DNA of 64,000 nt, from IMG/VR virus record IMGVR_UViG_3300032316_001438; one strand, 5' to 3'. This document shows positions 25,331 to 63,990 of the stretch, piece by piece. The translations under genes and the position numbers were made by a program. The stretch is from an uncultured virus (IMG/VR IMGVR_UViG_3300032316_001438) (taxonomy: Duplodnaviria; Heunggongvirae; Uroviricota; Caudoviricetes). Below the pieces are notes generated by a model. That model did no database searches. It was not told the origin of the DNA and saw only the letters and a program-made list of their open reading frames with translations. How positions within the stretch are numbered: the first letter of the stretch is position 1; each line of letters opens with the position of its first letter.

Positions 25331-25960
25331 TCAAGCGGCAACTAGATCAGGGAACATTCTTCTGGCCTTTTTCTGTAGATATGAAAACTGACCCTTAGCA
25401 TCAACCTTGGAGACATTGAGCATCTCTGAAACATCTTCAGAATTGAACCCTTGAAAGAATAGGGTATGGAAGGATGAAGCTTTAGAGACTGCAGGGGTGT
25501 AGTTTCCCTTTGCAATCCTAACCACGTCACGGTGACTAACGTGAAGCTTCTTACCTACTGCCGAAAGAGACTTACCCTTACCTATCTCCCTGGCAACAAG
25601 GGTAGCCTTCGACTTTGGTGCCGTGATTGCCTTGGACACTATTTCTAGATCTAGGGCTAGGTCAGAGTTGTAGCTCTTGCCTGAGATGCGCTCATCAAGC
25701 TCACAGGACAAAAAAGCCTTGGACTTGCGAAGGAAGTTAGAGAAACAGTTTCTAACCGAAGTGAAGATGAAAGAATTGACGGTAAGGCCAGACTTGTTCT
25801 TATTCCAATCGGATAGTACATTAACTAGGAAGTCTTGAACTACATCCTCTTGGGTGGTGAGGTCAATGCGGCCATAGGTCTTGGCAATAGCTCTGGCATA
25901 TTGTTTCGCCTTTAAGGTTGCCTGGTTAATCAGCTTCAAATCTTCACCGGAGTAGTTCAT
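25331..25960 (-). CDS. Divergent ECF/sigma-70-like factor
   Basis: Region 2-like QEDVVQDFL and SFIFTSVRNCFSNFLRK; region 4-like QGFNSEDVSEMLNVSKVDAKGQFSYLQKKAR; start MNYSG. Confidence 0.75.
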   Translation of the reverse strand: MNYSGEDLKLINQATLKAKQYARAIAKTYGRIDLTTQEDVVQDFLVNVLSDWNKNKSGLTVNSFIFTSVRNCFSNFLRKSKAFLSCELDERISGKSYNSDLALDLEIVSKAITAPKSKATLVAREIGKGKSLSAVGKKLHVSHRDVVRIAKGNYTPAVSKASSFHTLFFQGFNSEDVSEMLNVSKVDAKGQFSYLQKKARRMFPDLVAA

Positions 25961-26096
25961 AAAACAAAAGGTTAGAGACAACAGCAATAGTGAGAACCAG
26001 ATCAAAAACTCAAACCCGACCGCCCCTTTCGTTCATCGGGATAAGAGAAAAAAAGCCCCGCAAAAAATGGGGAACGGGGCCAGGAGGGTAAAAAAA

Positions 26097-26255
26097 TTAG
26101 GCGGCTTTAGGGAGAGTGGTAAGCAAATCCATCTTTGACTTTATATCCTGAAGAATTAACGACATCTCCGAGATACTTTTGTGGCAAGAAGCCTGGCGCA
26201 TCTTTATCCTCTCGATGGTGGCCTTTGCCTGCAGGTAGGGGTCTACATTTTCCAT
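26097..26255 (-). CDS. Small hypothetical protein (52 aa)
   Basis: MENVDPYLQAK...LPKAA by manual translation; motif copy ~50 nt upstream. Confidence 0.6.
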   Translation of the reverse strand: MENVDPYLQAKATIERIKMRQASCHKSISEMSLILQDIKSKMDLLTTLPKAA

Positions 26256-26333
26256 AGGTTAGTAACTTTGATAATTAGAGTCTAATCAGAAAGGAAACTC
26301 AACAACCGACCGCCCCTCCACTAGACACATAAT

Positions 26334-26421
26334 TGTGGATAAATCCAAAATAGCTGTTGATAAATTGTGGATGTTTCCCGTGAAACATTTTGTAAAACCT
26401 GCCACTGTTCCACAGGAAAGC
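26334..26421. promoter_or_regulatory. DnaA-box and chromosomal-type parS cluster
   Basis: TGTGGATAA 26334, TGTTGATAA 26355, TGTGGATGT 26366; TGTTTCCCGTGAAACA 26372-26387; TGTTCCACAGGAAAGC 26406-26421. Confidence 0.65.
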
Positions 26422-27324
26422 CTAATTCATAGCCCAAACACCGCGCGACACATTTACAAAATGTTTCTGGAGTATTTGCCTGATCTTGGCCTGGACGTGG
26501 TTGTTAGACCCAGTTCTGGCTCCTGCTATTTTCAACACTTCTTCGTAGATCATGGGTAGGTTAGATTGACCACCCAGATTTATGAGTGCCATTCGTATAT
26601 AGTTTCGCCATGTCATCTGGATATCAGACTGCAGGCCGGAAGCCTTGTCCCAGCAAATTTGAGCGAGCATGCGAGAGCTACGTTTCCAGAGTAAAAGGTA
26701 TTCGTGCATGATGGGTACGAAGCGATTAGACTGATAGGTTTTGAATCCGCTTCGGGTGTTGTGTTGGGCTTTGATTACCACTGAAATGAGTTCGGACTTG
26801 GGCATCATTTTTATGAAGTCGGCCTGAAAGGAGTGAAACAGACCGTTCTTTCTCATGTCTCCTATCAGCGTACAATAGTGACCGCCAGGCATGGTGGCTT
26901 CACGCTGGTTCAAAATCATCAGTTGACTCATTTCGATGAACTGGTCTACGGACTTGCACTGGGACAGGTCGTTGATCTGATCTGGGGCTAGGGGAGAGAC
27001 CTTCCCGTGTTTTGCTCTCTCCTTATGGTAGTCAATCATGTCGTGATAGGGAGGGTGGGTGAAGCAGGTGTCTGCCGGCCTTTCGAGCTTGCTGGCTATT
27101 GCGTGCCTGGTGAAGTCGAAGCCTGAGTGAAGGTCTAAGCCTACATAGTCTACTTTCATCTCCTGACAAACATCAGCACTCGTTCCGCTCCCATGACAAG
27201 CGTCCACGAAGAGCTTAGGTTTTAGGTGGGTGATAAGGTCGCGGATGATGTAGCCGGAGGTATTGCCTCTGTAGTTTGAGGAGCCGTACTTTCCGCGATC
27301 AGGGTAGGAGACTATGGAGTTCAT
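26422..27324 (-). CDS. Orphan amino (m6A/m4C) DNA methyltransferase with C-terminal winged-helix-like domain
   Basis: FVDACHGSGT SAM motif, THPPY catalytic motif; C-terminal NNHVQAKIRQILQ...RGVW. Confidence 0.85.
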   Translation of the reverse strand: MNSIVSYPDRGKYGSSNYRGNTSGYIIRDLITHLKPKLFVDACHGSGTSADVCQEMKVDYVGLDLHSGFDFTRHAIASKLERPADTCFTHPPYHDMIDYHKERAKHGKVSPLAPDQINDLSQCKSVDQFIEMSQLMILNQREATMPGGHYCTLIGDMRKNGLFHSFQADFIKMMPKSELISVVIKAQHNTRSGFKTYQSNRFVPIMHEYLLLWKRSSRMLAQICWDKASGLQSDIQMTWRNYIRMALINLGGQSNLPMIYEEVLKIAGARTGSNNHVQAKIRQILQKHFVNVSRGVWAMN

Positions 27325-27326
27325 GG

Positions 27327-27512
27327 TCAGGCGTATTGAAGTTCGGTTTCTAATGAGATTTTTTTTCGGTTAAGACTTTCGATCTTACGGTTGACCAACT
27401 TTACAGCTTCTTGGTAGCCATTGCTTTTAGAATGGCAGGCGGATTCTATCATCTCCAACTGCAGTTCCAGTAGTACCAGGCATTTGTCTTTATCGGAAAT
27501 ATGGTCGGTCAT
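27327..27512 (-). CDS. Small coiled-coil hypothetical protein
   Basis: 61 aa, 2 nt from the MTase start. Confidence 0.65.
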   Translation of the reverse strand: MTDHISDKDKCLVLLELQLEMIESACHSKSNGYQEAVKLVNRKIESLNRKKISLETELQYA

Positions 27513-27542
27513 TGGGATACTAGTTGAAAATGGGTTTTAAAA

Positions 27543-27629
27543 TTGTAAACAGGGGAGGACTTTAACCTCAGTCTTTCGCTTTCCATTTGGGGCAAGCGAA
27601 CGCATTTGTCTTTTATGCTAACCCTGTTT
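27543..27629 (-). ncRNA. tRNA-like cloverleaf RNA (8/4 fold, elongated anticodon arm)
   Basis: AAACAGGG/CCCTGTTT acceptor, GCAT/ATGC D arm, TTCGCTT/AAGCGAA arm, GAGG-TTAAAGT-CCTC T arm, 3' ACAA. Confidence 0.55.
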
Positions 27630-27700
27630 GTTCCCTTCTGCTCTTGGTGATAGGCCGGACTCTCACCGGCCAAGCCTTCGGGAAATGTCTTGTCACGATC

Positions 27701-27877: not shown

Positions 27878-27997
27878 AGTTTCAATTGTTTGGTTGATTA
27901 CAACAGCGCGGAACAAGTATTGGCACCCACACCGACCGTCCCCGGCCCTGGCCTGGTGCTAGACCTTTTCAAGATGCGCGTAAAATGAAGGAGCCTG

Positions 27998-28271: not shown

Positions 28272-28643
28272 TTAAGCGAATGCTTCTTCTCTCTGCTCGG
28301 CTGCTACCGCTGGCTTGCTTCCACCAATCATGTTCAATTCATCGACCACGATTTCGGTGGTATATCTGGTGATTCCGTCTTTCTCCCAAGAGCGGGTTTT
28401 GAGTTTTCCACTCACGAATAGTTGATCTCCTTTCTTCACGTACTTCTCTGCCACGTCAGCTAATTTCCCGAAAATGCTGCACGAATGCCATTCTGTGATT
28501 TCCTGAACCACACCGGCTTTGTCCTTGTACTTTTCGGACGTTGCCAAAGAAAAGCTGGCTACCTTGTTTCCGTTGTCGAATGTGCGTACTGCAACATCCT
28601 TTCCTACACGACCCATTAAAATGACTTTGTTTACTCCTGCCAT
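28272..28643 (-). CDS. ssb: Single-stranded DNA-binding protein (short tail)
   Basis: VNKVILMGRVGKD, TEWH, KKGDQLFVSGKLKTRSWEKDG. Confidence 0.97.
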   Translation of the reverse strand: MAGVNKVILMGRVGKDVAVRTFDNGNKVASFSLATSEKYKDKAGVVQEITEWHSCSIFGKLADVAEKYVKKGDQLFVSGKLKTRSWEKDGITRYTTEIVVDELNMIGGSKPAVAAEQREEAFA

Positions 28644-28747
28644 AGTTTTGTTGTTTAAGTGAAAAATAGATTAAGAAATAAATACGAATGGATAGCTGAG
28701 TATGAGAGGAGAAGCCAAACACCGACCGTCCCCAAAATTTTCAGAAA

Positions 28748-28777
28748 AAAGCCACTGTATTTTAACACAGTGGCTTT
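28748..28777. repeat. Inverted repeat with GCCACTGT half-sites
   Basis: AAAGCCACTGT-8nt-ACAGTGGCTTT; terminator-like on minus strand and shares the candidate parS half-site. Confidence 0.6.
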
Positions 28778-29947: not shown

Positions 29948-30379
29948 CTAAAAAGGTAGGTCGTCTGTTCCGTTATCCACAGGGGCATCCTGTTGTGATG
30001 GCGCAGGTGCGTTGCCATTTGTTGGCGCTCCTACTGATGGCGTTGACTGCTTGTTTCCGATCAATGTCAAATTGTCGCCAACCACCTCGGTTGTATAGCG
30101 GGTTACATTGTCTTTTTCCCAACTGCGTGTGCGCAGCTTTCCTTCGATATACACCTGATCGCCTTTGCGCAAATACTTGGCCGCAATGTCGGCCAATCCA
30201 CGCCAAAGAACTACGTTATGCCATTCTGTGATTTCCTTGCGCTCGCCAGTGGTCTTGTCTTTATAAGTTTCTGAGGTGACCATTGAAAAATTGGCCACTG
30301 TGGCGCCACTATCCAAATTGCGTACTTCGGGATCCTTCCCTAATCTGCCTACTAAAATTACTTTGTTTACTCCTGCCAT
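29948..30379 (-). CDS. ssb: Single-stranded DNA-binding protein (acidic DDLPF tail)
   Basis: Canonical SSB OB fold and C-terminal DDLPF. Confidence 0.97.
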
Positions 30380-30479
30380 ACTGTTTGTTGTTTAAGTGAA
30401 AAAATTATTAAAGAATAAATACGAATTGATACTTACAAAATTACGCAGCCACACAAACCCGACCGTCCCCGAGAAAAAT

Positions 30480-30806
30480 TCAAAACAAGATTTCCTCTAA
30501 AAACATAGGTTCAACTTTAACGTAGCTGCTCGGGTGTGACCAGCACCTTAGCTTGGCATCCCAAACAGGCTCATGGTGGCAAAGCTGCATGGAGGCGAAA
30601 AGTTCAAAGTTATCTTTAAGCCACTCGATACTAACCCCTAGATGAAAGCTGAGTTTCCCTTTATGAATGTGAGCTAAAGCCCACGCTTCCTCCGGCTCCT
30701 GGAAGTGGGTGGCAAAAAATCCAAAGCAAAGGTTATGCAAAATCCGATGGGTGGTGAGTGAATCGGTCTTGAATACTTGGGCGATGGTTTCTCTGTTTGC
30801 TTCCAT
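30480..30806 (-). CDS. Hypothetical protein
   Basis: 108-aa co-oriented ORF. Confidence 0.65.
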   Translation of the reverse strand: MEANRETIAQVFKTDSLTTHRILHNLCFGFFATHFQEPEEAWALAHIHKGKLSFHLGVSIEWLKDNFELFASMQLCHHEPVWDAKLRCWSHPSSYVKVEPMFLEEILF

Positions 30807-31146: not shown

Positions 31147-31465
31147 TACTATTTCATTAAAAAAGTCAAAAATTAAACTGCCAAGCTGATCAAAAGCTAT
31201 TTACGCTTCTTGCGTTTCTCCCTGTTCCTTTAGCAAGTCTGCACATGTTTCTTCTTAGCGAAGTGCTGCTTGTATTCTGGATCGTCCTTGAACAGAAGCA
31301 TCCCAGAGGACGATACAAGTATCGTTGGTCGTTTGCCGTATCTTAGTTCTGTCGTCATATTAATATTCTTTTACAGGTTTAACAGGCTGTATCGGGACTT
31401 AATACCTAAGCGAGCGATCCACCAAGCTCGACCGTCCGAGGGTCGTTATCTTCTTGGCAAACCGA

Positions 31466-31844: not shown

Positions 31845-32051
31845 TTAAAATCTGCAAGTCCGTTTAAAGTCCTTCATCATCAAGGCTGAATAGCAGGTGT
31901 ACCACTTAGAGGTATCTCTTCCTTTCTCGGCCTCCTCTGCTTCTATTGCAAGGAGGATTCCAAATTCACCTTCGGATAAATTAGGCATCTGGCTTTTAAG
32001 CTCGTTGACCCTTTCTTGTTTCTTGTCAACTGTGGAGTGTTTTGCGCTCAT
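31845..32051 (-). CDS. Small hypothetical protein
   Basis: 68 aa; motif copy 50 nt upstream. Confidence 0.7.
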   Translation of the reverse strand: MSAKHSTVDKKQERVNELKSQMPNLSEGEFGILLAIEAEEAEKGRDTSKWYTCYSALMMKDFKRTCRF

Positions 32052-32149
32052 AGATGAATAGTTGATTGACTTACGCTAAAGTTGTGACCAGTACCCAAGC
32101 CCGACCGTCCCTTGCTATTCCGCCAGGAGATCCAAAGTCGAGTATTTGT

Positions 32150-32623
32150 TTATATGGCTAGTGGCATCTCAATTTTCCGTTCCAGTAGTTTTTCCAAAAT
32201 TTCAGATTCGCTTTCGTAGACTTCTCCTTCGAAGGCGTAGACTCCGCTTTCGGTTTCTTCGTAACTTTCAAAGTCAGAACCATCAAGATCGGTTTCGATT
32301 AATACACCATCGTTGAAAGTGGCTCTCCCAAAAATTTGGCAGCCAAGCTCTTCGTAGTCGAGGGAACAATTGACTTTGTACTTTACGGCTATCTGGCGAA
32401 CAGTCTCAATGGCTGGTGACCACTTTGACCAAAAGTTGATTGAGTCTCTATTGACATCAATATCGAACATATAACGACACTCGTTGCCTTCCAAAAAGTC
32501 AGGCTTCTGGCCCTCACCCGTTTTACGGCAAGCCTCCTCCATTTTCTCAAAAAGGGAGATTACTTTTTTGAGCCTCTTTCCGTTTCCTGAGAAGATGAGA
32601 GTTTGTGAACAAATGTTTGCCAT
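32150..32623 (-). CDS. YubB/DUF1281 ferredoxin-like domain protein
   Basis: MANICSQ N-terminus, FWSKWSP and YEELGCQIFG pattern. Confidence 0.65.
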   Translation of the reverse strand: MANICSQTLIFSGNGKRLKKVISLFEKMEEACRKTGEGQKPDFLEGNECRYMFDIDVNRDSINFWSKWSPAIETVRQIAVKYKVNCSLDYEELGCQIFGRATFNDGVLIETDLDGSDFESYEETESGVYAFEGEVYESESEILEKLLERKIEMPLAI

Positions 32624-32766
32624 AGGTTGAAAGTTTAGTTGAGATGAATTGCTGTTACGAGAAGGTAGACGTCAGTAATGCAGCTAAACCCGACCGTCCC
32701 ACGCCTGAAAAAATGCAAAGGGAAAAATTCTCTGCCGACGATCCCAGAACTAGCCCATGCTACAGC

Positions 32767-33643: not shown

Positions 33644-33889
33644 TTATTTGGTGGCGATTATGGCTCGTACTTTTTCCCACGCTGTGTTAATGGCGCTTGA
33701 TGCTTGTGGGGTAGGAGCATCCCATGATATTCGTATCATCTCGAAGGCTGTGTCTACTTCGTTGGCAATGCGAATGGCATCAATGGCTTTATGGATAGCG
33801 GCATTGTGAGTCTCGCGCTCCTGTTTTGTATAGTGACTGTCACTCTCCGAAGCGAAGAGCGTTTCAAGATGTGCGATTGTTTTTCTCAT
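33644..33889 (-). CDS. Hypothetical protein
   Basis: Start MRKTIA; motif copy 50 nt upstream. Confidence 0.7.
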   Translation of the reverse strand: MRKTIAHLETLFASESDSHYTKQERETHNAAIHKAIDAIRIANEVDTAFEMIRISWDAPTPQASSAINTAWEKVRAIIATK

Positions 33890-33988
33890 GGTTAAGTGTT
33901 TTGATAAGAAGGACAAAGGACTTAGAATGAACATAACTCCGACCGCCCCAGATTTTAGATAAATGGACAGCCGTTGTAAGCCCTACTA

Positions 33989-34357: not shown

Positions 34358-34684
34358 TTAAGCAATTTTTATAAGGTCAAGGTGTCCTCTATCATTATAG
34401 GCTATCTGAAACTTTTTGCTTTTCATCCATGATGGTAGCTTGTTGTTGTGAGCTTGCTGACGGTTGATGATATTGATAAGGTTTTCAGCGACTCTCACAT
34501 CCACGTTCTGTATCCAGATTTTCAAGTCTTTCCTGAAAGAGTCACGCCTTGAGTGGAAGCTCGGCAGCGCGAAGCCGCAAAAAATGTTCTCTGCAAGGAT
34601 TCTAAAATTCACTTCAGTAGAATCATGGAAGCAATGCAGGAAGGCGGTCTTTATTGTTTCGAAGTTTGGCTGCTCTTTTTTCAT
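34358..34684 (-). CDS. Hypothetical protein
   Basis: Start MKKEQP; motif copy upstream. Confidence 0.7.
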   Translation of the reverse strand: MKKEQPNFETIKTAFLHCFHDSTEVNFRILAENIFCGFALPSFHSRRDSFRKDLKIWIQNVDVRVAENLINIINRQQAHNNKLPSWMKSKKFQIAYNDRGHLDLIKIA

Positions 34685-34748
34685 AGCTAGATACTTGCAC
34701 AAACCAACGATTACCTAACTCCGACCGACCCAGGCCTGGAACCGGAAC

Positions 34749-34909: not shown

Positions 34910-35314
34910 TTAGTTAGAATTAAAGCCCTTGGTGAAACGGTAGTCGGCCACAACTTTAGCATTAGACTTTTCGATGTAGGAGTCCATGAAGGAATCGAAG
35001 TCGGTGTTGTATCGATCATCGAAGCTACCATACTTAGAGGTGCTGACCTGTGCGTTAGCATCCTTGCTTACTGTGACACTGAATAGCTCTTCTGGCGTGG
35101 GGTGTCCGTGACCTTCCAAAACTAAGATCATAGGATTGAAGGCTTTGACGAATTTAATAGGGTTACGTTTTCCCTTAGGGATGAAGGATACGAAGGGCGC
35201 ATTTTTGTATTGCGCATACGGGCGCGAGCCATGCTCGATGAGTTTGCCCTCATGCTTTATGAAGTTTCCGAAAAATTCACTTTGGCGGTAGATGGTTACG
35301 AGCTGGTTTGACAT
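34910..35314 (-). CDS. Hypothetical protein
   Basis: 134 aa; motif copy upstream. Confidence 0.75.
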   Translation of the reverse strand: MSNQLVTIYRQSEFFGNFIKHEGKLIEHGSRPYAQYKNAPFVSFIPKGKRNPIKFVKAFNPMILVLEGHGHPTPEELFSVTVSKDANAQVSTSKYGSFDDRYNTDFDSFMDSYIEKSNAKVVADYRFTKGFNSN

Positions 35315-35417
35315 AGAAGATGCGATTTATGCTACTGCAGCTCTCAGCCACATGACAATGAAAGCCCGACCGTTCCAAGACCAGAAAATGCGCTTAGTTA
35401 TAAGGGATTATTTAACA

Positions 35418-37308: not shown

Positions 37309-38579
37309 GTGACACTCTCCATCTAAACAATAAGTTATAGATGGAGCTTCTCAGGCCCACGGGTAACCCCGATTGTATCTCCTGATGGGAATGCCCTTCC
37401 CAGTATGTTATTAGCGGCTACATAATCTGCGTGCTTTGTATACCCGCAGCCCAAGCAAAGAAAAACAGCCTGTGTCTTTCTGTTTCCTTTTTCAGTATGA
37501 CCACAGCACGGACACTCTCTACTGGTGTTCTTTGGGTTCACTTTTACAAATGTGCGTCCATACCAGTCTGCTTTATAGATGAGCATACCAAAGAAGGAAT
37601 AACCAGCGACATCCATCAGGCTTCTATTCAATCCTGATTTCTGTTTCACCATCCTTCCCGGCTCTTCGAGTGTACCCTTAGCCGACTTGGTCATATTGCT
37701 AAACATCAGCTCCTCCGCTACGATAACTTGGTTTTCGTTTATCAAACGGGTGCTTAGTTTTTGCTGAAAGTCATTTCTTGAGTTCCTCTCTCTGAAATAT
37801 AGTTTTTGCAGTGAGATTACTTCGTTCTTTCTCCTGGCAGACCCTTTCTTCTTGCGGGCGATGCTGCGCTGTTTGATTTTTATCCTTTTTGCAAATGATT
37901 TTTTGATCTGAGGATTAGCAACAAATTCACCATCGGAAGTAACAATGTAGTTAGTTACTCCAATATCAATTCCAATCTTTCGATCATTCTTCCCCAGGTG
38001 GTAGACATCAACTTCGCCCATCAGCGATATAAACCAGCCAGTCGGTTCTTTTATAATCTTTCCTTGTTTTATAACAAATGTCGATAGATCGCGTTTTCCT
38101 GAGAAGAAAGAAAGCTCACCGAACTTAGGTAGGAATAATTTGTTTCCTCTCAACACAACACCCTGTGGAAAGGTAAAGGATCGGTATTCTCCCTTCTTAG
38201 CAAACTTTGGAAAGCCTTCACCACGGAAGAAGTTTTTATAACTGCGCTCAAGTCTAACTAAAGGATCTTGCACCACTTGAGAGTGAACAGATTTTATCCA
38301 AGGGTATTCCCCTGCCAGCTGCTTTACCTGAAGCTGTAGCTCTGATTTGCTGACGCTGACTTTTTTCTTTTGGTAAGCCTGAATGCGTGTATCGAGCGCT
38401 AAATTATAGATGAGCCTACACACACCAAGCCATTGGTCGAGCTTTACAGATTGCTCCCTTGTGGGTTTCAGTTTTAGCTTGTATGTTGTGATCCTTTTTG
38501 GCATTGTTAATTCTGATAATGGTGTCAATTCATCTCCCACTAAATGAAATTATAGAGGGAGAATTCTTGCAAATTATTG
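37309..38579 (-). mobile_element. IS200/IS605-family TnpB-only element (IS1341-like)
   Basis: Subterminal hairpins at both ends (CTCCC...GGGAG ~38528-38570; CTCCATCTA...TAGATGGAG ~37317-37346), right end GTCAC, TTTAA immediately 5' of left end; no tnpA. Confidence 0.8.
37335..38504 (-). CDS. tnpB: RNA-guided endonuclease TnpB
   Basis: YKLKLKPT HTH, RuvC IGIDIGV / VAEEL / HADYVAANNI, CPCC...CLGC zinc finger; start MPKRIT. Confidence 0.95.
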   Translation of the reverse strand: MPKRITTYKLKLKPTREQSVKLDQWLGVCRLIYNLALDTRIQAYQKKKVSVSKSELQLQVKQLAGEYPWIKSVHSQVVQDPLVRLERSYKNFFRGEGFPKFAKKGEYRSFTFPQGVVLRGNKLFLPKFGELSFFSGKRDLSTFVIKQGKIIKEPTGWFISLMGEVDVYHLGKNDRKIGIDIGVTNYIVTSDGEFVANPQIKKSFAKRIKIKQRSIARKKKGSARRKNEVISLQKLYFRERNSRNDFQQKLSTRLINENQVIVAEELMFSNMTKSAKGTLEEPGRMVKQKSGLNRSLMDVAGYSFFGMLIYKADWYGRTFVKVNPKNTSRECPCCGHTEKGNRKTQAVFLCLGCGYTKHADYVAANNILGRAFPSGDTIGVTRGPEKLHL

Positions 38580-38759
38580 TTAAAAATCAGCGACATGGAC
38601 AACTTGCTCTGAGGCCAGTTCACACAAGTGAACGTGTACCATGTGAGCCTTGGACTTTGCAGGCATGAAAAACTCGATTGCCTTTTGCTTCGCTTGGTAT
38701 AGTGAGTCAGCGTAGATGTCTGTTTGCTTACCGTTGGAAAATCCTTTGTATCCGCTCAT
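38580..38759 (-). CDS. Small hypothetical protein (59 aa)
   Basis: MSGYKGFSNGKQTDIYADSLYQAK...HVADF; motif copy upstream. Confidence 0.7.
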   Translation of the reverse strand: MSGYKGFSNGKQTDIYADSLYQAKQKAIEFFMPAKSKAHMVHVHLCELASEQVVHVADF

Positions 38760-38833
38760 AACAATGTGTGATTTGAAGTCAACTATACATCAATCAGGAA
38801 ATGGACTCAACCCCGACCGTCCCCCGGTGCCAG

Positions 38834-38889
38834 CGGAATAAAGTTTCCTTCGTTCCGGAATAAAGTTTTAGCGTTCCGGAACAAAGTTT
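38834..38889. repeat. Three repeats CGGAAYAAAGTTT, 21-22 bp period
   Basis: Directly visible downstream of the C5 MTase. Confidence 0.85.
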
Positions 38890-38894
38890 TTGTT

Positions 38895-39779
38895 TTAGTT
38901 ATTGAAGTATCTCATTACCTGCTGGCCTATCCATTCTGCCATTGGTACCGGCACACCGTTTCCGATTTGCTTTATTGCTTCGTTATCACCACCTTCGAAT
39001 TGGTAAGAGTCTGGCACACCTTGAAGACGGGCATATTCCCTCAATGAATATGGTCTTATTGTATTTGGATGAGAGCGGTCAATTACCATTCTGGTGCCTT
39101 TGTCCTTACTGTAGTGCGCGACACAAGTTGGAGCTAGTTCATGTGGGTTGGAAGGGTCAGAAATAATTGGTTTGTCCCGATATCCACCATTGATACGCTT
39201 CATCACATAGGCAGGGATTTCTACATCGGGGTTGCTGTCAATGAGGTCTCTAAGTTTTGGTCTGCGAATCATCGGCACAGGTTCGCTGATTGAGAAGGGG
39301 CGCTTGGTAGCGAAGAGAATTAAGCGTTGTCTCTTCTGGGGTAGCCATACCGTTGCGTTAAGAGGGCAAAAAACAGAGATGCTGTATCCAGGCAATTTTG
39401 ACATCGCTTCCATGACCACTGGGAACGCTTTCATCCCGCAAACATTTTCTACACAATAAATTTCAGGCTGCTCAATTGCTATGTGACGGAAAAAATGCAA
39501 AAACAATTCATCACCTGTTCTGGTACCATGAATATCAGCGATGCGTGAATACTTTGTGCAAGGGTATGTTCCCATTACGAAGTCGGATGCAGTTTGCTTT
39601 GTTACCAGCATATCGCGGATGTCCTTCTCTACCACTTGGTGAGAAAAGTTCCTGCGTAGCGTGTCGCAGCTTGCACGATCGATCTCTAGTGATTGGATGA
39701 TGTTTACCCCTGCCATAGAGAGGCCAAGGTCAGAAAGTCCTCCACCAGAAAAATAAGATTTGCAAGTTGGGATATACAT
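38895..39779 (-). CDS. Orphan C5 cytosine DNA methyltransferase
   Basis: FSGGGL, GTYPC, VENV, PQKRQR, ARLQG, QIGNGV motifs. Confidence 0.95.
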   Translation of the reverse strand: MYIPTCKSYFSGGGLSDLGLSMAGVNIIQSLEIDRASCDTLRRNFSHQVVEKDIRDMLVTKQTASDFVMGTYPCTKYSRIADIHGTRTGDELFLHFFRHIAIEQPEIYCVENVCGMKAFPVVMEAMSKLPGYSISVFCPLNATVWLPQKRQRLILFATKRPFSISEPVPMIRRPKLRDLIDSNPDVEIPAYVMKRINGGYRDKPIISDPSNPHELAPTCVAHYSKDKGTRMVIDRSHPNTIRPYSLREYARLQGVPDSYQFEGGDNEAIKQIGNGVPVPMAEWIGQQVMRYFNN

Positions 39780-39840
39780 AGCGATTAAGGTTTGCTATGG
39801 GTACTCACCCCAAATAAAGCGGCCTAAACCCGACCGCCCG

Positions 39841-39922
39841 AGTTCGAAACTTTATTATTCGCAGTTCGAAACTTTATTTTTTTTAGTTCAGAACCTTATT
39901 ATTTCCAGTTCGAAACTTTATT
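39841..39922. repeat. Four repeats AGTTCGAAACTTTATT, exact 22-bp period
   Basis: Starts at 39841, 39863, 39885 (degenerate), 39907. Confidence 0.9.
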
Positions 39923-39933
39923 TTTCTAACTAG

Positions 39934-43371: not shown

Positions 43372-43663
43372 AATCAGTAGGGGTGAATTGAACATAACAG
43401 CGTCAACACGACATGAGAGCAAACCACCGACCGCACCCGGCAATTAAAAAAAGCCATAATTCTATTCCGAGATTGGAACGAGTATGAAGTTTTCTTCAAA
43501 AGTGCGAGCCAGTGGAGGTAGAGGTGCATGCAGAAATTTTTCAAATTCTCGAAATGGATATAGGCATCCGTTTGGAGCATCTGCGCATATTTGTCTAAGT
43601 GCTCGCGGCTTTTTCGATCATACTTGTCGAACATTATGCCACTGCTTCTGGAAGGCTTCCAGC

Positions 43664-44450: not shown

Positions 44451-44629
44451 ATTTTGAATTATTAGAACTCTTTCTACTGCTTCACTGGGGCACATACCTT
44501 TTCGACAAAACACTTCCCATAAATATTTTAGTTAAGTACCTGTAGCTTTAATAATGGAAGGAGGACACTTTAAACCAAACCCGACCGTACCAGGCCCTGA
44601 AAAAATGCCATAATTATATTTCGCATTAG

Positions 44630-45391: not shown

Positions 45392-45453
45392 ATCGCTATT
45401 GATAAACAAGCGTTGAATACACCGAACCCGACCGTCCGGAACTAAATGAAAGA

Positions 45454-47410: not shown

Positions 47411-47458
47411 AGAAGTAGAGGATTATAGTTACCCAACCCCGACCGTGCAAACCGTATT

Positions 47459-50102: not shown

Positions 50103-50705
50103 TTACCCAACCCCGACTGTTCGCCTTATAGGCTTTTTGCAACAATTGCACTTATTGTTTTCCATTTCTAATCTGTCGTAAAAGCCACTGTGTATGCAAA
50201 AGCACAATCCAGACTCAGCACTTAGTTCCACACCATCGACTTGCTCCTTCTTTCCAACGCGCTCAAAAAAGAATACAACTGGCTTTATGGTTTCAGTAAC
50301 TAGTCCATACCTCTTTGCAATCTTATACTGAGTGTTTAATTCGTTAAGGTGTTTCATAAATCCTTGTATCAATTTTCTGAACTCCTCAAGACCTAAACTG
50401 TGCTTATTGATGTTGCAACTTGCGCAGGCGGGCATTTGATTGTCTAAGTTGAATCTCTCAGGGTGCATACATCCATCCGCAACCCATTTACCTTCTTTCC
50501 ACTCGTAGTCATCAGTTATCTCCGATTTCTTGTCCCTGGGCAGACCTGTTACTTTATGAACAAATTCCGGAGGTATCCATTTCCTTTTTCTTCTAACGGG
50601 TTCAATTTCATCCACGTGCCATCCTTTTTGCAATACAGACCCACAATAAGCACAGAGTCCATCGTACTTGTTGAAAATCAGATCACGTTGTTGTTTCTTA
50701 GTCAT
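50103..50705 (-). CDS. HNH endonuclease-like protein
   Basis: CAYCG...WHVDEIEP...NQMPACASCNINK; the usual DH appears as DE; start MTKKQQ. Confidence 0.85.
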   Translation of the reverse strand: MTKKQQRDLIFNKYDGLCAYCGSVLQKGWHVDEIEPVRRKRKWIPPEFVHKVTGLPRDKKSEITDDYEWKEGKWVADGCMHPERFNLDNQMPACASCNINKHSLGLEEFRKLIQGFMKHLNELNTQYKIAKRYGLVTETIKPVVFFFERVGKKEQVDGVELSAESGLCFCIHSGFYDRLEMENNKCNCCKKPIRRTVGVG

Positions 50706-55054: not shown

Positions 55055-55174
55055 GTCAATTGGAACATTAAATGATAGCCAGAACTAAACACCGACCGGA
55101 CAGGGAATTTGATATCCAACTCAAACCTCCACTCAAGCATTCTTCGATGATGAAAGCCATAGGATTAAGACAGT

Positions 55175-55999
55175 CTACAAATCCAGCGTTGGTTGAGCGT
55201 TTAGAACACGAGCTTTACATGTGAGCACATGGCTACCAAGTCCACCTGCAGTACGAAATGTGCCATTGCAATGTTCGCACACGTATCGAGGAGATTGATC
55301 AGTGTTATCTGGTGGAGGTGTTCCAAGGACAAGGTGTGACTTGCCATTCATTTCACGCTTGACGGAAGCGATCAGCCTCTCATGTTTTTCAGATAGCTCC
55401 ATGAACGCTATACGCTCCAGCTTGCTGGTCTCCTCCAGGTGAGCGATAGCCTGAATGGAGTGCTCTGACTCATTAAGCAATTGAGATAATTTTTGCGACT
55501 CAGCTTTAGATTCAGAGAGTTCCTTTTTCAGCTTTTCGATCTGGCCGAACATTTGGTATTTGGTTTCGCGCTCACCGATGATATCGTTAAAGAATACCAC
55601 GTAGCTGTGCACGATCCAGCTGGCGGTACCGGCAATGGCTACATTGATGGCGATTTTAATCGAGAGCTGCGCGGTGCTATCTTGAATACCGGCTATGTTT
55701 TCAAGAAATCCGTAGTTTAGAAAAAAGCAATTGAAAAGGAAGACAATAAAAGCAAGTCCGGTAGCTTCATTTTTTCGTCCGTTGATGGCGAATGTGATCA
55801 TGGCCAGGTCGAAGCCAAGGGCAAAGAACAGGGCGTAGAGCTCTTCATCGTAAGGGAACAGGTCGAATGATAAACCGGTGACCTTAAGCAAAAGGTGTTG
55901 AGTATGAATAACCAGGGGAACGGTAATAAAAACGAAGGTTAACAAAACCCACTTTTCACTACGCAGCAATAAAACCCATTTGGATGTAGACTTTTCCAT
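55175..55999 (-). CDS. Membrane protein with coiled coil and C-terminal zinc finger
   Basis: About 4 TM segments, coiled coil, CEHC...SHVLTC. Confidence 0.8.
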   Translation of the reverse strand: MEKSTSKWVLLLRSEKWVLLTFVFITVPLVIHTQHLLLKVTGLSFDLFPYDEELYALFFALGFDLAMITFAINGRKNEATGLAFIVFLFNCFFLNYGFLENIAGIQDSTAQLSIKIAINVAIAGTASWIVHSYVVFFNDIIGERETKYQMFGQIEKLKKELSESKAESQKLSQLLNESEHSIQAIAHLEETSKLERIAFMELSEKHERLIASVKREMNGKSHLVLGTPPPDNTDQSPRYVCEHCNGTFRTAGGLGSHVLTCKARVLNAQPTLDL

Positions 56000-58038: not shown

Positions 58039-58236
58039 AACCAAGTCTTAATCCGCTTGATTAAAAGTAAACCAAAAAATATAAAATTGCAAACACCACT
58101 CTAAACCTTATAGCAAATACGCTTGGCCTCAATTTTATAAATACCTTTCAAAATCATAGATTTGCGAGCGAACGTCCAAAATAAAAGGACAGAAAATTTT
58201 ACGCGGCCCATGCCGGAAAGTTCCAAAAAGGAAAGT

Positions 58237-60339
58237 ATGCCATATATTCCAAACCATATTGCAGAACAAATTAAGGCGGCTGCAGACATATTGGATGTCG
58301 CTTCTGAATTTGTCGATTTGAAAAAAGCGGGAGCCAACTATGTTGGGCTTAGTCCTTTTCAAAAAGAGAACACGCCTAGTTTTAACGTAGTGGTCGCCAA
58401 AAACATATTTAAGGATTTTTCAAGCGGGAAAGGTGGTGACGTTATAGAATTTTTAAAACATGACAGGTTAGATGGTGGCAAAGGGATGGAGTATTATGAG
58501 GCTCTTGAATGGCTCGCGAAAAGATACGCAATAGAGATACCTAGCAACAAGGCCAAGGATCCTGAAAAAGATGAACTTCGCGAAGCCAACAACTTTGCGC
58601 AGCTCTATTTCAGGCTTGTATTATTTGAAAGAGACGAGTATTCCCTGGCCGACAGGTATCTAACTCAGGAGCGTAAGTTTCCAAAAGAGATCATTGAGAA
58701 ATTCCAGATAGGCTATACGATACGAGGCCTTTACGATGGCCTTTTAGATTATGCCAAGCTAAAGAATTTCTCTACGGATAAATTAAAAAAGGCTGGATTA
58801 TTGAAGCAATCTAGTAAGGGTAAGCTCTACGACTTTTTTCGAGGCCGGATAATGTTTCCTATTCACGATGAGGCGGGAAATGTTATTGCTTTTTCAGCAA
58901 GAAAGTTCGATCGCAACGAGTGGCCAGAGCAAGAGCCAGGTTCAGTGAGCAAGAGGGGCAACGTACCATCATGGGATTCGCTATCACCCCAAGAGCAGGA
59001 GCGAAGAAAAAAAGCAAGGGAGGAGGAGGACAAAAAGCTCGCTGAGCAGCCAAAATACATAAACTCTCCAGACAGTAAGATATTCAAAAAGAAGTATGTG
59101 CTGTATGGTATCCACCTTGCTAAAAAAGCAATAAAGGAGAAAAACAATGTTTTCTTGGTAGAGGGTTATACCGATGTGATGGCCCTGCACATGGCTGGAT
59201 ATACAAATACCGTAGCATCCTTAGGAACAGCGGTAACCCCTGAACACGCCACGGTACTGCGAAGCATTACCGATACTATAACGTTTATGATGGACTCGGA
59301 CGCAGCCGGAATCAAGGGTGTGCTTAGGTCTGTGGAATTCTTTCTATCCGGCGGTTTCAAGGTGAAGATAATCATGCTAAGTGGAGCAAAAGATCCGGAC
59401 AGCTATCGCACTGCAAACGGCACGCATGCGTTGAACAGGTACGTTGAGACAGCGGCTCAGGACATTATCATGTTTATGATGAATCACCACATGGCCAAAG
59501 CTGATGTAACGGATCCTCATAGCATCGCGAAGGTTATCAAGGGGGTTGTGTGGATGATTGCTAAAATAAAAGATAAGATTGTTAGAGAGAACTACATAAA
59601 AATGTGTTCTCAGAAAATGGGCGTGACGGAGCTTTCTTTGATGGAAGAAATGGAACAGCAATATGAAGCTCAGAAAAAAGGTATACCAATATTTAAGAAA
59701 CAGGCATTCAGCGCAGTCACCCAATTACCAGCGATCGAAACACGGCCTGCAGGGGAGAAGAGAAAAGAGCTAGTACAAGAACTGGCCGCACAACCAGCTG
59801 AACAGGGAGAGAGAAAGCAAGCAGAGAAAAAACAAGTCGTGGCGCCTCCTTCTATTGATATCATTGAGGACGTGGCAAGGAAGCTTATCAAAATGCTTTT
59901 TAAACTTGACCCCGATATCAGAACGGAGATTCTAGCTCAGTCTATTGGGATGCAAATACCTACCAAGTGGATATCGGTTTGGAAGGCCTTCAAAGAGGAC
60001 CCTACAATTAACATCCAGCAAGTCCATGAGAAAGTTAAGTTGAGCGAAGCTGATCTGGCTTATTTTACTTTATCTAATAGTGAAACGCAAGACCAGCTTG
60101 CCGATCTAGCGCCTAGCGAAGGGGAGAAGGCGATGGGTGGGCATCCAGTGACCAGGCTATTGCTAAACCTGAGGTTAAAAAAGGTGCGGGAGATGATTGA
60201 TTTGAGCAATCAAAATAAAAACAACAATTCTAGCGAACAGCAGAGAGATGCCAGAATGAAAGCGCATTTGGAGCTAAAGAAGATAGAGAGGTCTTTAACA
60301 GCAACACTGAAGGAGTCTATTACGAGTAGGGTTAGGTAA
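58237..60339 (+). CDS. dnaG: DNA primase DnaG
   Basis: GLSPFQKENTPSF...KDFSSGKGGD, DFFRGRIMFPIHD, PKYINSP, VEGYTDV, GTAVT, DSDAAG, DPD; start MPYIPN (alternative 58210). Confidence 0.95.
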   Translation: MPYIPNHIAEQIKAAADILDVASEFVDLKKAGANYVGLSPFQKENTPSFNVVVAKNIFKDFSSGKGGDVIEFLKHDRLDGGKGMEYYEALEWLAKRYAIEIPSNKAKDPEKDELREANNFAQLYFRLVLFERDEYSLADRYLTQERKFPKEIIEKFQIGYTIRGLYDGLLDYAKLKNFSTDKLKKAGLLKQSSKGKLYDFFRGRIMFPIHDEAGNVIAFSARKFDRNEWPEQEPGSVSKRGNVPSWDSLSPQEQERRKKAREEEDKKLAEQPKYINSPDSKIFKKKYVLYGIHLAKKAIKEKNNVFLVEGYTDVMALHMAGYTNTVASLGTAVTPEHATVLRSITDTITFMMDSDAAGIKGVLRSVEFFLSGGFKVKIIMLSGAKDPDSYRTANGTHALNRYVETAAQDIIMFMMNHHMAKADVTDPHSIAKVIKGVVWMIAKIKDKIVRENYIKMCSQKMGVTELSLMEEMEQQYEAQKKGIPIFKKQAFSAVTQLPAIETRPAGEKRKELVQELAAQPAEQGERKQAEKKQVVAPPSIDIIEDVARKLIKMLFKLDPDIRTEILAQSIGMQIPTKWISVWKAFKEDPTINIQQVHEKVKLSEADLAYFTLSNSETQDQLADLAPSEGEKAMGGHPVTRLLLNLRLKKVREMIDLSNQNKNNNSSEQQRDARMKAHLELKKIERSLTATLKESITSRVR

Positions 60340-61052: not shown

Positions 61053-61266
61053 AAAATGCCCTTCGAGGTAACTAATCTCGCAGAACAACGTCAAAACCTA
61101 AACCTTAAAAGAACGATAGTTACAATCATTATTAAAAAGAGAGCAGAGACCTAAACCCCGACCGTCCGGGCGCGTTCTCGAAAAAAATGGCTAAAATCAA
61201 TTAAATTTGGTAAGGTGTTTGCTAACACACACTTGATCTCAAAAAAAAGGATAAAAACAAAGCTAT

Positions 61267-61410: not shown

Positions 61411-61443
61411 TTTCCTGAAGAAGACCACACGTAATACTTTGGC

Positions 61444-61779: not shown

Positions 61780-61787
61780 TTAACAAT

Positions 61788-61900: not shown

Positions 61901-61994
61901 CTCTGTGGAACTTCGAGCGCACCTATGTAAAACAAAATAAACTTAGAAATAACGAAAAAGCGGTGCCAGTGTATAAAAAAATCTTATCCCTAAT

Positions 61995-62204: not shown

Positions 62205-62219
62205 TATGTCGGTTATACT

Positions 62220-62402
62220 TTAAAATTTATCGACTACTATCGACTCATGGGGATAAGTTAATCTCTGCTGAGACTCTAAAGTGAACGCCTTAGTCGTTAG
62301 ATTCAAAATTAGAGCGCATCCCTCATTAGATTTTTCAAATTTGCTTGACCACTCAGCATATCCAGGTAGATTGGTTATCTCAATATAGGTTAGCTTTTTC
62401 AT
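62220..62402 (-). CDS. Small hypothetical protein
   Basis: 60-aa co-oriented ORF. Confidence 0.55.
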   Translation of the reverse strand: MKKLTYIEITNLPGYAEWSSKFEKSNEGCALILNLTTKAFTLESQQRLTYPHESIVVDKF

Positions 62403-62477
62403 TTAGTTATCAATTAAGAACAAATTTACGCCAAACATATATATCGCTACTGAGAGCCGCCCAACTACCACTAATAA

Positions 62478-62954
62478 TTAATTTCCAGACCCACTCTTGC
62501 GGTAATCCCAAGGCGCAACCGGATTAACGTCTGCCCACAGCCCACGCCCCGCGGCTTTGGCCTCCGCCTGGAGAGCATCTAGCGATGCATCAGTAGAATA
62601 TCGCTTGTAGTGCCATGCGAGCCCGGCTCGGACCAGCTCTCGGTTGAGCGACGAGCCATCCGGCAGCGTGACGAAGGCGACCTTGCGGCCATACTTATCA
62701 GTGTCGGTGATGCGAAGCGTGATGGTCTGACCAAAGCATTTTAAGGAGGTGAACTCTTTGGCCTTCTGGCCGTAGGCCTGCGACTTTTCAGGCGCATCGA
62801 TCGAGGCCAGGCGCACGCGCGTCTCCACTCCATCGAGAATGACTTTGATCGTGTCTCCATCGGAGACGGCTACGACTTTGACTACATCTGTTTTCTGCTC
62901 GGGCGCAAAGGAGCAAAGAAGGATCAGCGCAAAAAGGGCAAACACATTTTTCAT
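62478..62954 (-). CDS. Thermonuclease (SNase-like) with signal peptide
   Basis: VSDGDTI, VRLASIDAPE, DKYGR, GLAW, GRGLW. Confidence 0.95.
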   Translation of the reverse strand: MKNVFALFALILLCSFAPEQKTDVVKVVAVSDGDTIKVILDGVETRVRLASIDAPEKSQAYGQKAKEFTSLKCFGQTITLRITDTDKYGRKVAFVTLPDGSSLNRELVRAGLAWHYKRYSTDASLDALQAEAKAAGRGLWADVNPVAPWDYRKSGSGN

Positions 62955-63048
62955 AGTTTAAAAAATTTAGTAAAAGTTATTGTTGTGATAAAGTATTACA
63001 GAATGGGAAAAAGTGAAAAAGATGATAGAAATATTTTTTAGAACAATG

Positions 63049-63372
63049 TTAAACTCTAATCTCTTGCGTGTGGAACAGAAGCTCATTGTCTGCCGGGTTC
63101 CAATCTTGCTCATTAGCGATATTATCAGCCCTGTCTTTATCGGTCACAGATTCATACTCGTTACGGTACCGGTACTCGAAGTCCTGAAACGCCTGGAGAT
63201 ATTCCTCCATGGTTTCTTCTTTCTTTGCGGCTCTGAACCCAAAATCTTCGTGAAGTGTCGATTTAAGTTTTTCAAATGCTTCATCTCTTTGAGGGGTGAC
63301 AAAAGGCTCATTCTCGTTGATTAACCCAGACCAAACGTGAAGAATAACCCATACTGATATTGCCTTTTTCAT
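63049..63372 (-). CDS. Acidic hypothetical protein
   Basis: 107-aa co-oriented ORF. Confidence 0.7.
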   Translation of the reverse strand: MKKAISVWVILHVWSGLINENEPFVTPQRDEAFEKLKSTLHEDFGFRAAKKEETMEEYLQAFQDFEYRYRNEYESVTDKDRADNIANEQDWNPADNELLFHTQEIRV

Positions 63373-63405
63373 AGTTGATTGTTTAATGTGAAACCACTTT
63401 TGGAA

Positions 63406-63642
63406 TTAATTCAGCCTACCTATTTCCTTCTCAGCCCTACGCTGCTCAAAGTCGCGGGCGATCAAATCATAAATCACCTGTCGATCTGTATCACAAGGGA
63501 TATACTTAAGCAGCGCCCTGTCAAGCTCATACTTAGACTTTCTCACCGTGTTTACAGGGTTATTCCTGGAGCCCTCTACGGAAACATAAACCACTCCACA
63601 AACATCACTCTCTGAATTAGGGACAACCATAGTTAAGCTCAT
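63406..63642 (-). CDS. Small hypothetical protein
   Basis: 78 aa; variant motif ~50 nt upstream. Confidence 0.6.
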   Translation of the reverse strand: MSLTMVVPNSESDVCGVVYVSVEGSRNNPVNTVRKSKYELDRALLKYIPCDTDRQVIYDLIARDFEQRRAEKEIGRLN

Positions 63643-63654
63643 AAAACAAATTTA

Positions 63655-63990
63655 TTAAATAAGACTAACCACAAACAAAGCAACCACAACTGCGACCGAC
63701 ACCCCGCAATACCTCGCTACAAGTTCACGCCCACGCTCCGAGCTACTGGTGGGTCCGCAACCTTCTTTTGTTGGGTGATCGTAGAACCCCAGCTTGAGAG
63801 CTTCTATATCTCGCGCAGCATGGAATGGTACCAACGGACCCTGGTGGCCTGAAGGGCGCTTGCAATACTGGCCGGCCTTCGCGTGGCAGTCCGGGCATTC
63901 GACTTCAAAGACCGGATCTTGCCGAAATTCATGTTGACAGCTATTACAAGTAGTTGGAACATTTGGCTTCGATGCCGGATAAAAACTCAT
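63655..63990 (-). CDS. Zinc-finger hypothetical protein
   Basis: CNSC, CPDC...C...H...HAAR. Confidence 0.7.
   Translation of the reverse strand: MSFYPASKPNVPTTCNSCQHEFRQDPVFEVECPDCHAKAGQYCKRPSGHQGPLVPFHAARDIEALKLGFYDHPTKEGCGPTSSSERGRELVARYCGVSVAVVVALFVVSLI

Follow-up and report, generated by a model that had tools for sequence, protein, structure and literature searches.

Few cases are known of how conjugative elements switch on the genes that enter a new host first: IncF and IncI plasmids use hairpin promoters that form on single-stranded DNA (ssDNA), and plasmids of the pLS20 family use repressor- or leader-based regulons. In IncC plasmids and the SXT/R391 integrative and conjugative elements, one element-encoded master regulator (AcaCD or SetCD) acts at many sites on many operons; these are FlhDC-type activators that work with the host sigma70 and drive transfer genes. 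Phage-encoded sigma factors include SPO1 gp28 and T4 gp55. Phages 7-11 and phiEco32 are described as having their own sigma factor (gp36 in phiEco32) and single short promoter boxes (PMC4331800). Here we report the analysis of a DNA window of 64,000 nucleotides (IMG/VR record IMGVR_UViG_3300032316_001438), which is best read as an arm of a large conjugative element from a bacterium of the Cytophagales (Bacteroidota). The window contains an array of about twenty short boxes, all in one orientation, and a predicted sigma-factor gene (25331-25960). We lean, without strong conviction, towards the reading that the boxes are the cognate promoters of this element-encoded, self-activating sigma factor, and that they drive the presumed leading region of the element.

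In the window there are 21 copies of the heptamer CGGTCGG, compared to a mean of 2.29 and a maximum of 7 in 100 dinucleotide shuffles, none of which reaches 21. Of these cores, 19 lie between 26016 and 61158, all on the minus strand. The remaining two, at 6339 (minus) and 16213 (plus), are each within a coding sequence (CDS), as the initial annotation had noted for the two cores to the left of the presumed origin of transfer (oriT). All 18 positions that it listed as exact are present; an exact minus-strand core at 48742, absent from its list, lies within a CDS and lacks the flanks of the box. Alignment of the 18 exact sites gave the consensus GGGR-CGGTCGG-KKTT-DRGT, which is ~20 nt long and carries information from -4 to +14 relative to the core. 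Upstream of the core the alignment shows no second conserved block, and the box is asymmetric, without the dyad or direct-repeat structure typical of operators. The pattern originally written for the sites, GGRCGGTCGG followed by KKTT, holds as a consensus and breaks down as a strict rule, with GGRCGGTCGG present in 12 of the 18 sites and the KKTT tail in 10.

A 21-nt position weight matrix (PWM) was trained on the 18 exact sites, and both strands were scanned with a threshold of >=12 bits. The scan returned 21 matches and none of them is on the plus strand (mononucleotide shuffles: mean 0.82, maximum 3), in line with the single orientation claimed previously. Besides the training sites, the matches comprise two variants, at 31428 (17.9 bits) and 50113 (19.6 bits), as well as one weak match inside the relaxase CDS, at 22734 (15.1 bits); the other 20 are located between genes, from 26016 to 61158. 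A third variant that had been proposed, at 63692, fell below 12 bits. The existence of the box array is confirmed, at a frequency far above that expected by chance.

The box belongs specifically to the element, and it does not represent a signal used throughout the host genome. In 401 sampled Cytophagales genomes, the strict form GGRCGGTCGGKKTT, which is matched by 7 of the window's sites, gave at most 4 matches in any genome (65 of the 401 have any, and these are scattered), and a reversed control of the same form behaved in the same way. A scan of viral contigs with the box pattern gave five single matches with no clustering, which we take as chance. The host-type promoter word TAnnTTTG is present 16 times on the box strand of the region and just once near a box, consistent with the earlier remark that most sites lack a correctly spaced copy. 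Scans of the window for sigma70-type promoters and for terminators gave no more than the shuffle level.

Genes were taken from a crude call of open reading frames (ORFs; 117 in the window), followed by Pfam (E<=0.001), NCBIfam and PHROG profile scans. After likely spurious plus-strand ORFs and over-long TTG starts were discounted, the boxes are intergenic, and in 18 of the 20 cases the next ATG-started ORF (>=40 aa) starts 28-85 nt downstream, close to the ~29-80 nt first estimated. The exceptions are 33939, where the first ATG is at 4 nt and a later in-frame ATG is the more likely start, and 61158, where the ATG is at 168 nt. Since the distance between box and ATG is variable, a promoter with a 5' untranslated region fits the arrangement and a translation signal does not.

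T-run terminator-like hairpins are present within 80 nt upstream of 5 of the 20 boxes, and of 4 of the 18 boxes in the related element described below, compared to ~4.6% at random positions. The GC(A)TTTTTTC-like upstream tracts pointed out near 28722, 32690, 35366, 43427, 44581 and 61158 are visible in the alignment, and a hairpin scan showed that those at 28722 and 32690 are the T-tails of such hairpins. Two boxes directly abut tandem repeats; both flank the C5 methylase gene, and their repeats look like candidate operator arrays for an additional regulator. The variable leaders, the terminator-like hairpins and the abutting repeats together fit new transcription starts at the boxes. No excess DNA folding was found at the 20 boxes (157-nt windows compared with dinucleotide shuffles; mean z +0.14 on the plus strand and +0.32 on the minus strand), and no Rfam family matched at them.

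The gene nearest the presumed oriT had been described as sigma-like and as having its own copy of the motif, and both points hold. The gene 25331-25960 encodes a protein with an N-terminal sigma region 2-like domain, a disordered linker and two helix-turn-helix (HTH) units. Sigma-type matches were obtained from four profile libraries, all of them below the curated cut-offs: Pfam Sigma70_r2 (E 1.3e-4; all five family members match, the best with 4.8e-5), TIGR02937 (E 1.1e-5), PHROG 1740 'RNA polymerase sigma factor' (E 9.8e-9), and the solved extracytoplasmic function (ECF) sigma 5uxx (E 1.3e-5). Sigma70_ECF matched weakly in 4 of the 5 family members, and the N-terminal domain models onto sigma region 2. 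The match to Sigma70_r4 is weak (E 0.078, residues 116-148, in 2 of the 5 members), the further HTH unit at ~160-202 lies outside the ECF plan, and the C-terminal half gave weak GerE/LuxR-type matches. From these sub-threshold profile matches and the region 2 model, the protein is predicted to be a divergent ECF-like sigma factor. NCBI gives the name sigma-70 family factor to a protein of 92% identity from a Cytophagales metagenome-assembled genome (MAG). Pfam and NCBIfam detected no anti-sigma family beside the gene, and the neighbouring small ORFs are without known function.

The sigma family is very rare, with only 4 clusters at E<=0.001 in an exhaustive phmmer search of 1.84 billion representatives. 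A single-sequence search of genome, metagenome, viral and plasmid collections found no close relatives of the gene. An alignment-based search returned 13 loci, again none of them in the viral collection, and among the species-representative genomes the sole full-length homologue (27% identity) is on contig C11 of a Cyclobacteriaceae MAG (G001; locus L005). Four further loci that were inspected (L001, L003, L004 and L009) have the look of ordinary chromosomal ECF sigma loci, and the 12 loci besides L005 were dropped as non-orthologues. The exact window box is not enriched in the 13 loci, and no dispersed polar array was found in the other 12.

The contig C11 region is related to the window's element. 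BLASTP identities are 43% for the coupling protein (T4CP; 44% by genome search), 30% for the relaxase and 27% for the sigma factor, and among the genes of the array 60% for the N6 methylase, 60-63% for the single-stranded DNA-binding proteins (SSBs) and 64% for DUF1643. In total, 14 window ORFs have a homologue in C11. Among these the sigma factor alone is predicted to regulate transcription, since the ParB-like protein, which is also shared, is a partition homologue; no C11 homologues were found of the window's Xre-type HTH gene or of its TnpB.

C11 has a polar box array of its own, with a different sequence. Its box AACCGSCGAGGGG (pattern AACCG[GCA]CGAGGGG.GG) is present in 18 gene-strand copies over ~68 kb, each before an ATG. 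One copy is 47 nt before the sigma ATG, a layout that would suit positive autoregulation and is shared with the window, where the distance is 55 nt, and two are just after the sigma gene. The exact C11 12-mer occurs six times in the 4.9-Mb genome, and all six copies are within 18 kb of this region; of the 20 one-mismatch 12-mers in G001, 8 are also on contig C11. The co-occurrence that the initial annotation had asked for, of motif and sigma homologue, is therefore found in C11. With a diverged sigma and a diverged box in the same architecture, the box and sigma sequences change together in this one relative. The differing box is as would be expected of a cognate protein-DNA pair, and the proposed sigma link gains support from it. 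No relative with a box array and without the sigma gene was found, which is a weak test, as a single relative was readable.

Six 40-kb regions upstream of the next-closest T4CPs (in five of the 401 Cytophagales genomes) contain no dispersed array. They carry iteron-like clusters and a CRISPR array, and the only window homologue in them is ParA, in two of the six; these regions are too distant and hence unsuited to testing for a box without the sigma gene. In two of them, G062:C6 (~26.3-27.0 kb upstream of the T4CP) and G006:C11 (~13.1-13.7 kb), which belong to other Cytophagales conjugative elements, 12-17 short direct repeats (…AAACAGCCG… and …GACAGTTTTGGTGG…) form dense clusters that look like iteron or centromere sites.

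The G001 array was also followed beyond the sigma locus. At 76000-134000 of its contig (L026, L024 and L025), the box-headed array includes RecA, a DNA polymerase III beta clamp and a PRTRC (ThiF/E2/ubiquitin-like) cassette, as well as RadC, SRAP, an SF1 helicase and a 1675-aa methylase-helicase fusion. This DNA-metabolism load is unusually rich for a leading region.

The two boxes were compared for the shape of a putative promoter. When the window GGGAC is aligned with the C11 TGAAC, an ECF-like -35 word, the boxes share G-R-A-C-S-G-K-C-G-R-G; the -35-like word is GGAC or GGGC in the window box, and GAAC starts the C11 box. A T-rich, A-poor tract is located at +26 to +29/30 from the 'C' in both elements (window: T 42/80, background 0.36; C11: T 64/90, background 0.37), at positions picked after inspecting the profiles, and the shared tract and box register are suggestive only. 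No CGT-type -10 follows the window box or the C11 box, and the bipartite AAC/CGT arrangement of ECF promoters (spacer 16-17) is not seen. The -33/-7 geometry of Bacteroidota promoters is closer to the spacing of box and T tract than is the ECF spacer of 16-17 nt. In a layout of this kind, the GGRAC end of the box would be a -35/-33-like element and the T-rich tract 26-30 nt downstream of 'AC' a -7/-10-like element. The G-rich/TT part may be read by the second HTH unit of the sigma-like protein, and the two HTH units might read the contiguous 20-nt box side by side.

We propose that each box would mark the start of one of ~20 transcription units, and would be the specificity element for RNA polymerase carrying the element's own ECF-like sigma factor (25331-25960). 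Because its gene has its own box ahead of it, the sigma factor should raise its own synthesis and, once some has been made, would switch on the whole array together. Expression of the array would be independent of host TTTG/TAnnTTTG promoters. If the transfer order is as the gene arrangement suggests, the time of expression might be that of establishment in the recipient.

Several observations weigh against this proposal. Classical ECF promoters do not have the form of a contiguous ~20-nt box that lacks a clear second element at ECF spacing. In the window the T-rich tract is weak, and cross-correlation of the T/A profiles gave a broad plateau (r 0.41-0.55 at shifts of -1 to +6), which leaves the register unproven. 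Only 20 of the 41 gaps of >=40 nt between kept genes hold a box. An autoregulated sigma factor requires a first trigger, and none was identified. The co-variation of box and sigma comes from two independent elements only. In addition, an exact C11 box lies antisense in the 5' part of the relaxase CDS (147631-147639, minus strand; L005 ~13535-13543), a placement that the proposal does not account for. This antisense copy points at the minus-strand homologue of window gene 55175-55999, ~640 nt away.

Of the other explanations, the one that survives best, though we consider it unlikely, is that the box is an operator or activator site beside host-sigma promoters. It would be bound by the sigma-like protein in the role of an HTH regulator, or by another protein of the element, and would either repress until transfer, as in the p576/EGeRS2 repressor system, or activate, as AcaCD and SetCD do. 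This explanation agrees equally well with the array and its polarity, with the restriction of the box to the element and with the autoregulatory copy. The two HTH units in the C-terminal half of the protein, with their weak GerE/LuxR-type matches, agree with it, as does the sub-threshold score of every sigma match, and the repressor of the pLS20 family is described as controlling its own promoter and all the establishment promoters (PMC8708921). However, no TAnnTTTG host-type promoter stands at a fixed place by the boxes, and the asymmetric box has no operator-like dyad or direct repeats. The region 2-like N-terminal domain, present in all five family members, would be superfluous for a plain HTH regulator, and Pfam detected no FlhDC-like or ribbon-helix-helix (RHH) regulator among the 117 window ORFs.

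We regard as distinctly improbable that the box is a transcribed leader element, whether an antitermination/processivity loading or pause site (ops/RfaH-like, or sigma-dependent pausing) or a site of RNA processing or protein binding. Such an element would be polar, within 5' leaders and at a variable distance from the ATG, as the boxes are, and terminator-like hairpins separate some of the modules; we also take the box to resemble the ops element (GGCGGTAG). However, a terminator followed directly by a box suggests a new start and not read-through, and the sites have neither excess folding on either strand nor an Rfam family. No NusG/KOW domain was detected by Pfam in the window or in C11 (108 ORFs, E<=1e-5), in both of which many ORFs are without a family. 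Signals of the ops type occur about once per operon, and it would be unusual to have twenty such loading sites within 36 kb.

There is little to recommend a role of the box on the transferred single strand, either as a priming site for the DnaG-like protein (58162-60339) or the Toprim protein (3780-8114), or as a promoter of the Frpo/ssi type. All copies are on one strand of the presumed leading region, two primase-like proteins and two SSBs are encoded, and the leading regions of F and IncI plasmids are described as using ssDNA promoters that possibly also prime DNA synthesis (PMC12672017). In contrast to such promoters, the boxes form no hairpins, their 157-nt windows folding no better than shuffles, and a replication signal need not be confined to gaps between genes, 28-85 nt ahead of start codons. 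Primases are known to recognize either trinucleotides or structured ssi sites.

Least probable of the four, and very doubtful, is that the boxes are integron-like cassette recombination sites, or targets for RNA-guided recruitment of the sigma factor (dCas12f-sigmaE type) through the TnpB encoded at 37335-38540. The layout is modular with boxes at the module borders, several copies contain GTTRRRY-like words, a TnpB/Cas12f-like gene is within the array, and sigma recruitment by short guides is described in Bacteroidetes (PMC12259090). Besides TnpB, however, no integrase or recombinase was detected by Pfam among the 117 ORFs, and there is no attC-like folding. The TnpB gene and the sigma gene are ~12 kb apart, no TnpB homologue is present in the C11 region, which still has its box array, neither sigma gene is adjoined by a dCas12f gene, and the systems described target at most seven loci with 14-nt guides (PMC12259090). 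Priming and cassette recombination, both offered as alternatives by the initial annotation, are thus disfavoured. Two further candidates were rejected: a sigma54 promoter (TGGCAC-N5-TTGC), whose GG/GC spacing did not fit in a by-eye comparison, and a Chi/KOPS-like strand signal, because the copies are confined to intergenic positions before ATGs.

The features of the window are listed in Table 1. The genes for transfer and partition have no box ahead of them, the PWM finding just the weak site at 22734 inside the relaxase CDS. The stretch next to them is probably non-coding and contains only weak inverted repeats. From the sigma gene onwards, a one-way array of ~80 small minus-strand genes runs towards the mobilization genes and extends to the end of the window. 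The array encodes two SSBs, orphan N6 and C5 DNA methylases, a MutS_I-domain protein, a DUF1281_C protein, an AAA ATPase, DUF1643, an HNH-like protein, a staphylococcal-type nuclease and TnpB. Plasmid leading regions have been described with such gene content and orientation (PMC11541004), and we presume the array to be the leading region, on the basis of its genes and of its one-way orientation towards the relaxase genes; the oriT is placed by its position, and the polarity of transfer is presumed. If the box delimits the regulon, these ~80 mostly unknown small genes are flagged as candidates for establishment or anti-defence functions.

Table 1. Boxes, genes and repeats in the window
Feature	Position	Strand	Evidence or context
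Coupling protein (T4CP)	18720-20810	-	Pfam/NCBIfam
ParB-like	21071-21865	-	Pfam/NCBIfam
ParA	21878-22648	-	Pfam/NCBIfam
Relaxase, MobA/VirD2-type	22665-24476	-	Pfam/NCBIfam
NikA-like accessory gene	24495-24953	-	Pfam/NCBIfam
G/T-rich stretch, probably non-coding; presumed oriT / mob promoter region	24955-25330		oriT inferred from position
Sigma-factor-like gene, 209 aa from ATG 25960	25331-25960	-	Last gene of array, adjoins presumed oriT
Box, copy 1	26007-26027	-	29.3 bits; 55 nt upstream of sigma-like gene ATG (autoregulatory copy); T-run terminator-like hairpin just upstream
Box	26297-26317	-	22.3 bits; 50 nt before 52-aa ORF 26097-26255
Box	27923-27943	-	24.1 bits; 54 nt before ATG ORF (27877)
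Box	28713-28733	-	29.8 bits; 78 nt before SSB gene 1 (28272-28643); 12-bp terminator-like hairpin upstream
Box	30450-30470	-	28.9 bits; 79 nt before SSB gene 2 (29948-30379)
Variant box, core CGGTCGA	31419-31439	-	17.9 bits
Box	32092-32112	-	28.7 bits; 49 nt before ORF 31845-32051
Box	32681-32701	-	26.3 bits; 66 nt before DUF1281_C (Api92-like) gene 32150-32623
Box	33930-33950	-	26.7 bits; before ORF 33644-33934
Box	34712-34732	-	24.7 bits; 36 nt before ORF 34358-34684
Box	35357-35377	-	21.0 bits; 51 nt before ORF 34910-35314
Box	38804-38824	-	30.5 bits; 53 nt before 59-aa ORF 38580-38759, then TnpB gene 37335-38540
21-nt tandem repeat, 2.7 copies	38834-38890		Tandem Repeats Finder (TRF) score 77; directly upstream of box 38804-38824
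Box	39821-39841	-	26.0 bits; 50 nt before C5 DNA methylase gene 38895-39779
22-nt tandem repeat, 3.9 copies	39841-39926		TRF score 102; directly upstream of box 39821-39841
Box	43418-43438	-	22.1 bits; 31 nt before ATG 43395
Box	44572-44592	-	28.0 bits; 85 nt before ATG 44495
Box	45419-45439	-	23.3 bits; 36 nt before ATG 45391
Box	47430-47450	-	25.5 bits; 28 nt before ATG 47410
Variant box, core CAGTCGG	50104-50124	-	19.6 bits; 55 nt before ATG 50057
Box	55083-55103	-	20.6 bits; 37 nt before ATG 55054; heads run of ~11 genes
Box	61149-61169	-	27.2 bits; 168 nt before ATG 60989

Some further features were observed in passing. The DnaG-type primase gene (plus strand), with zinc ribbon, catalytic core, Toprim and DnaB-binding domain, is the sole long opposite-strand gene within the array. 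TnpB (minus strand), with an IS605 OrfB / Cas12f-like TNB domain, has no TnpA nearby. In the 1444-aa protein encoded at 3780-8114 (plus strand) the sole recognized part is Toprim_2, residues 396-473, and near its gene are those of a pentapeptide-repeat protein (9595-10470) and a ResIII/SNF2-type helicase (11343-12842). The leaders of the two SSB genes (28630-28760 and 30366-30496, minus strand) have in common the box and ~45 nt next to the ATG, while the 35 nt between differ, which suggests duplication of a whole promoter-leader-gene module. A 485-nt gap contains a weak Rfam tRNA match (27548-27627, minus strand; 31.2 bits, cut-off 29, E 0.015); ARAGORN found no tRNA in the window.

A broader statement can be made, more tentatively than that for the window itself and again from sequence comparison. 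A family of large Bacteroidota conjugative elements might carry a phage-like programme, in which the gene nearest oriT encodes a private sigma factor of three parts (sigma2, sigma4-like HTH and an extra HTH). This factor would read one uninterrupted box of ~20 bp in place of a split -35/-10 promoter, and would be one that activates its own gene and fires ~20 promoters (at least 18 in the relative) over 36-70 kb of establishment and anti-defence genes. Host promoter rules would be bypassed, and box and sigma would co-evolve as orthogonal pairs. In open-access full text, we found no paper in which a conjugative element drives its leading-region genes with a sigma factor of its own, and none on the switching-on of first-entering genes in Bacteroidota elements. 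If true, a sigma factor carried by the element together with its own set of promoters would add a third strategy to ssDNA promoters and pLS20-type regulons, with expression independent of the recipient's promoter rules, and would bear on host range and on the deployment of anti-defence genes. The two diverged sigma/box pairs would also be candidate orthogonal expression parts for Bacteroidota.

Among the known systems, several are comparable in single features. An integron attC array differs in that no integrase is found here among the 117 ORFs by Pfam and the sites have no excess folding. Unlike the case of AcaCD and SetCD, the transfer genes here are without a box, and Pfam detected no FlhDC-like protein. 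The dCas12f-sigmaE systems are described as having a Bacteroidota ECF-like sigma with a C-terminal extension and short targets upstream of genes, including their own locus, with no need for canonical promoter motifs (PMC12259090). Here, however, no dCas12f is beside the sigma gene, the sole TnpB-like gene is not kept in C11, there are ~20 targets compared to at most seven in the systems described (PMC12259090), and no guide RNA was found, none having been searched for. SigN (ZpdN) of the Bacillus subtilis plasmid pBS32 is described as a plasmid-encoded alternative sigma factor with its own plasmid regulon, and is thus similar in kind, being the only plasmid-encoded sigma factor that the search of open-access literature returned; it belongs to the Firmicutes, and no sequence relation is shown.

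The Frpo/ssi systems of IncF and IncI plasmids are described with a unidirectional leading region containing SSB, methylase and anti-defence genes in separate operons headed by several promoters (PMC12672017; PMC11541004), and in the window, too, the transferred strand could be the template. Their promoters are described as long hairpins that rebuild the host sigma70 -35/-10 (PMC12672017; PMC11541004), whereas the window has no hairpins or host-type boxes and encodes its own sigma-like protein. The EGeRS sequences of the pLS20 family are closer: according to the description, a shared regulatory sequence precedes several operons of variable establishment genes (anti-restriction, SSB-type), and the regulator controls its own promoter (PMC8708921), as the candidate regulator gene here has its own box. 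EGeRS1 is described as a structured sequence of 400-600 bp and EGeRS2 as repressor (RHH) operators on strong sigmaA promoters (PMC8708921), neither of which is a feature of the window; here an unstructured 20-nt box is present in ~20 copies, with a candidate sigma factor as regulator, in another host phylum. The window resembles a pLS20-type establishment regulon in design only, with no sequence relation. As described for phages phiEco32 and 7-11, a divergent sigma factor on a mobile element is accompanied by one short element-specific box before many co-oriented genes, the box standing out by its over-representation between genes (PMC4331800). Here the element is conjugative and not a phage, its box, at ~20 nt, is longer as well as G+C-rich and has no relation to TAATGTATA, its candidate sigma factor has an extra C-terminal HTH, and no temporal classes, host-sigma inhibitor or anti-sigma were identified. 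Judged by analogy, the closest systems in design are the phage sigma factors with private single-block promoters, together with the establishment regulons of the pLS20 family.

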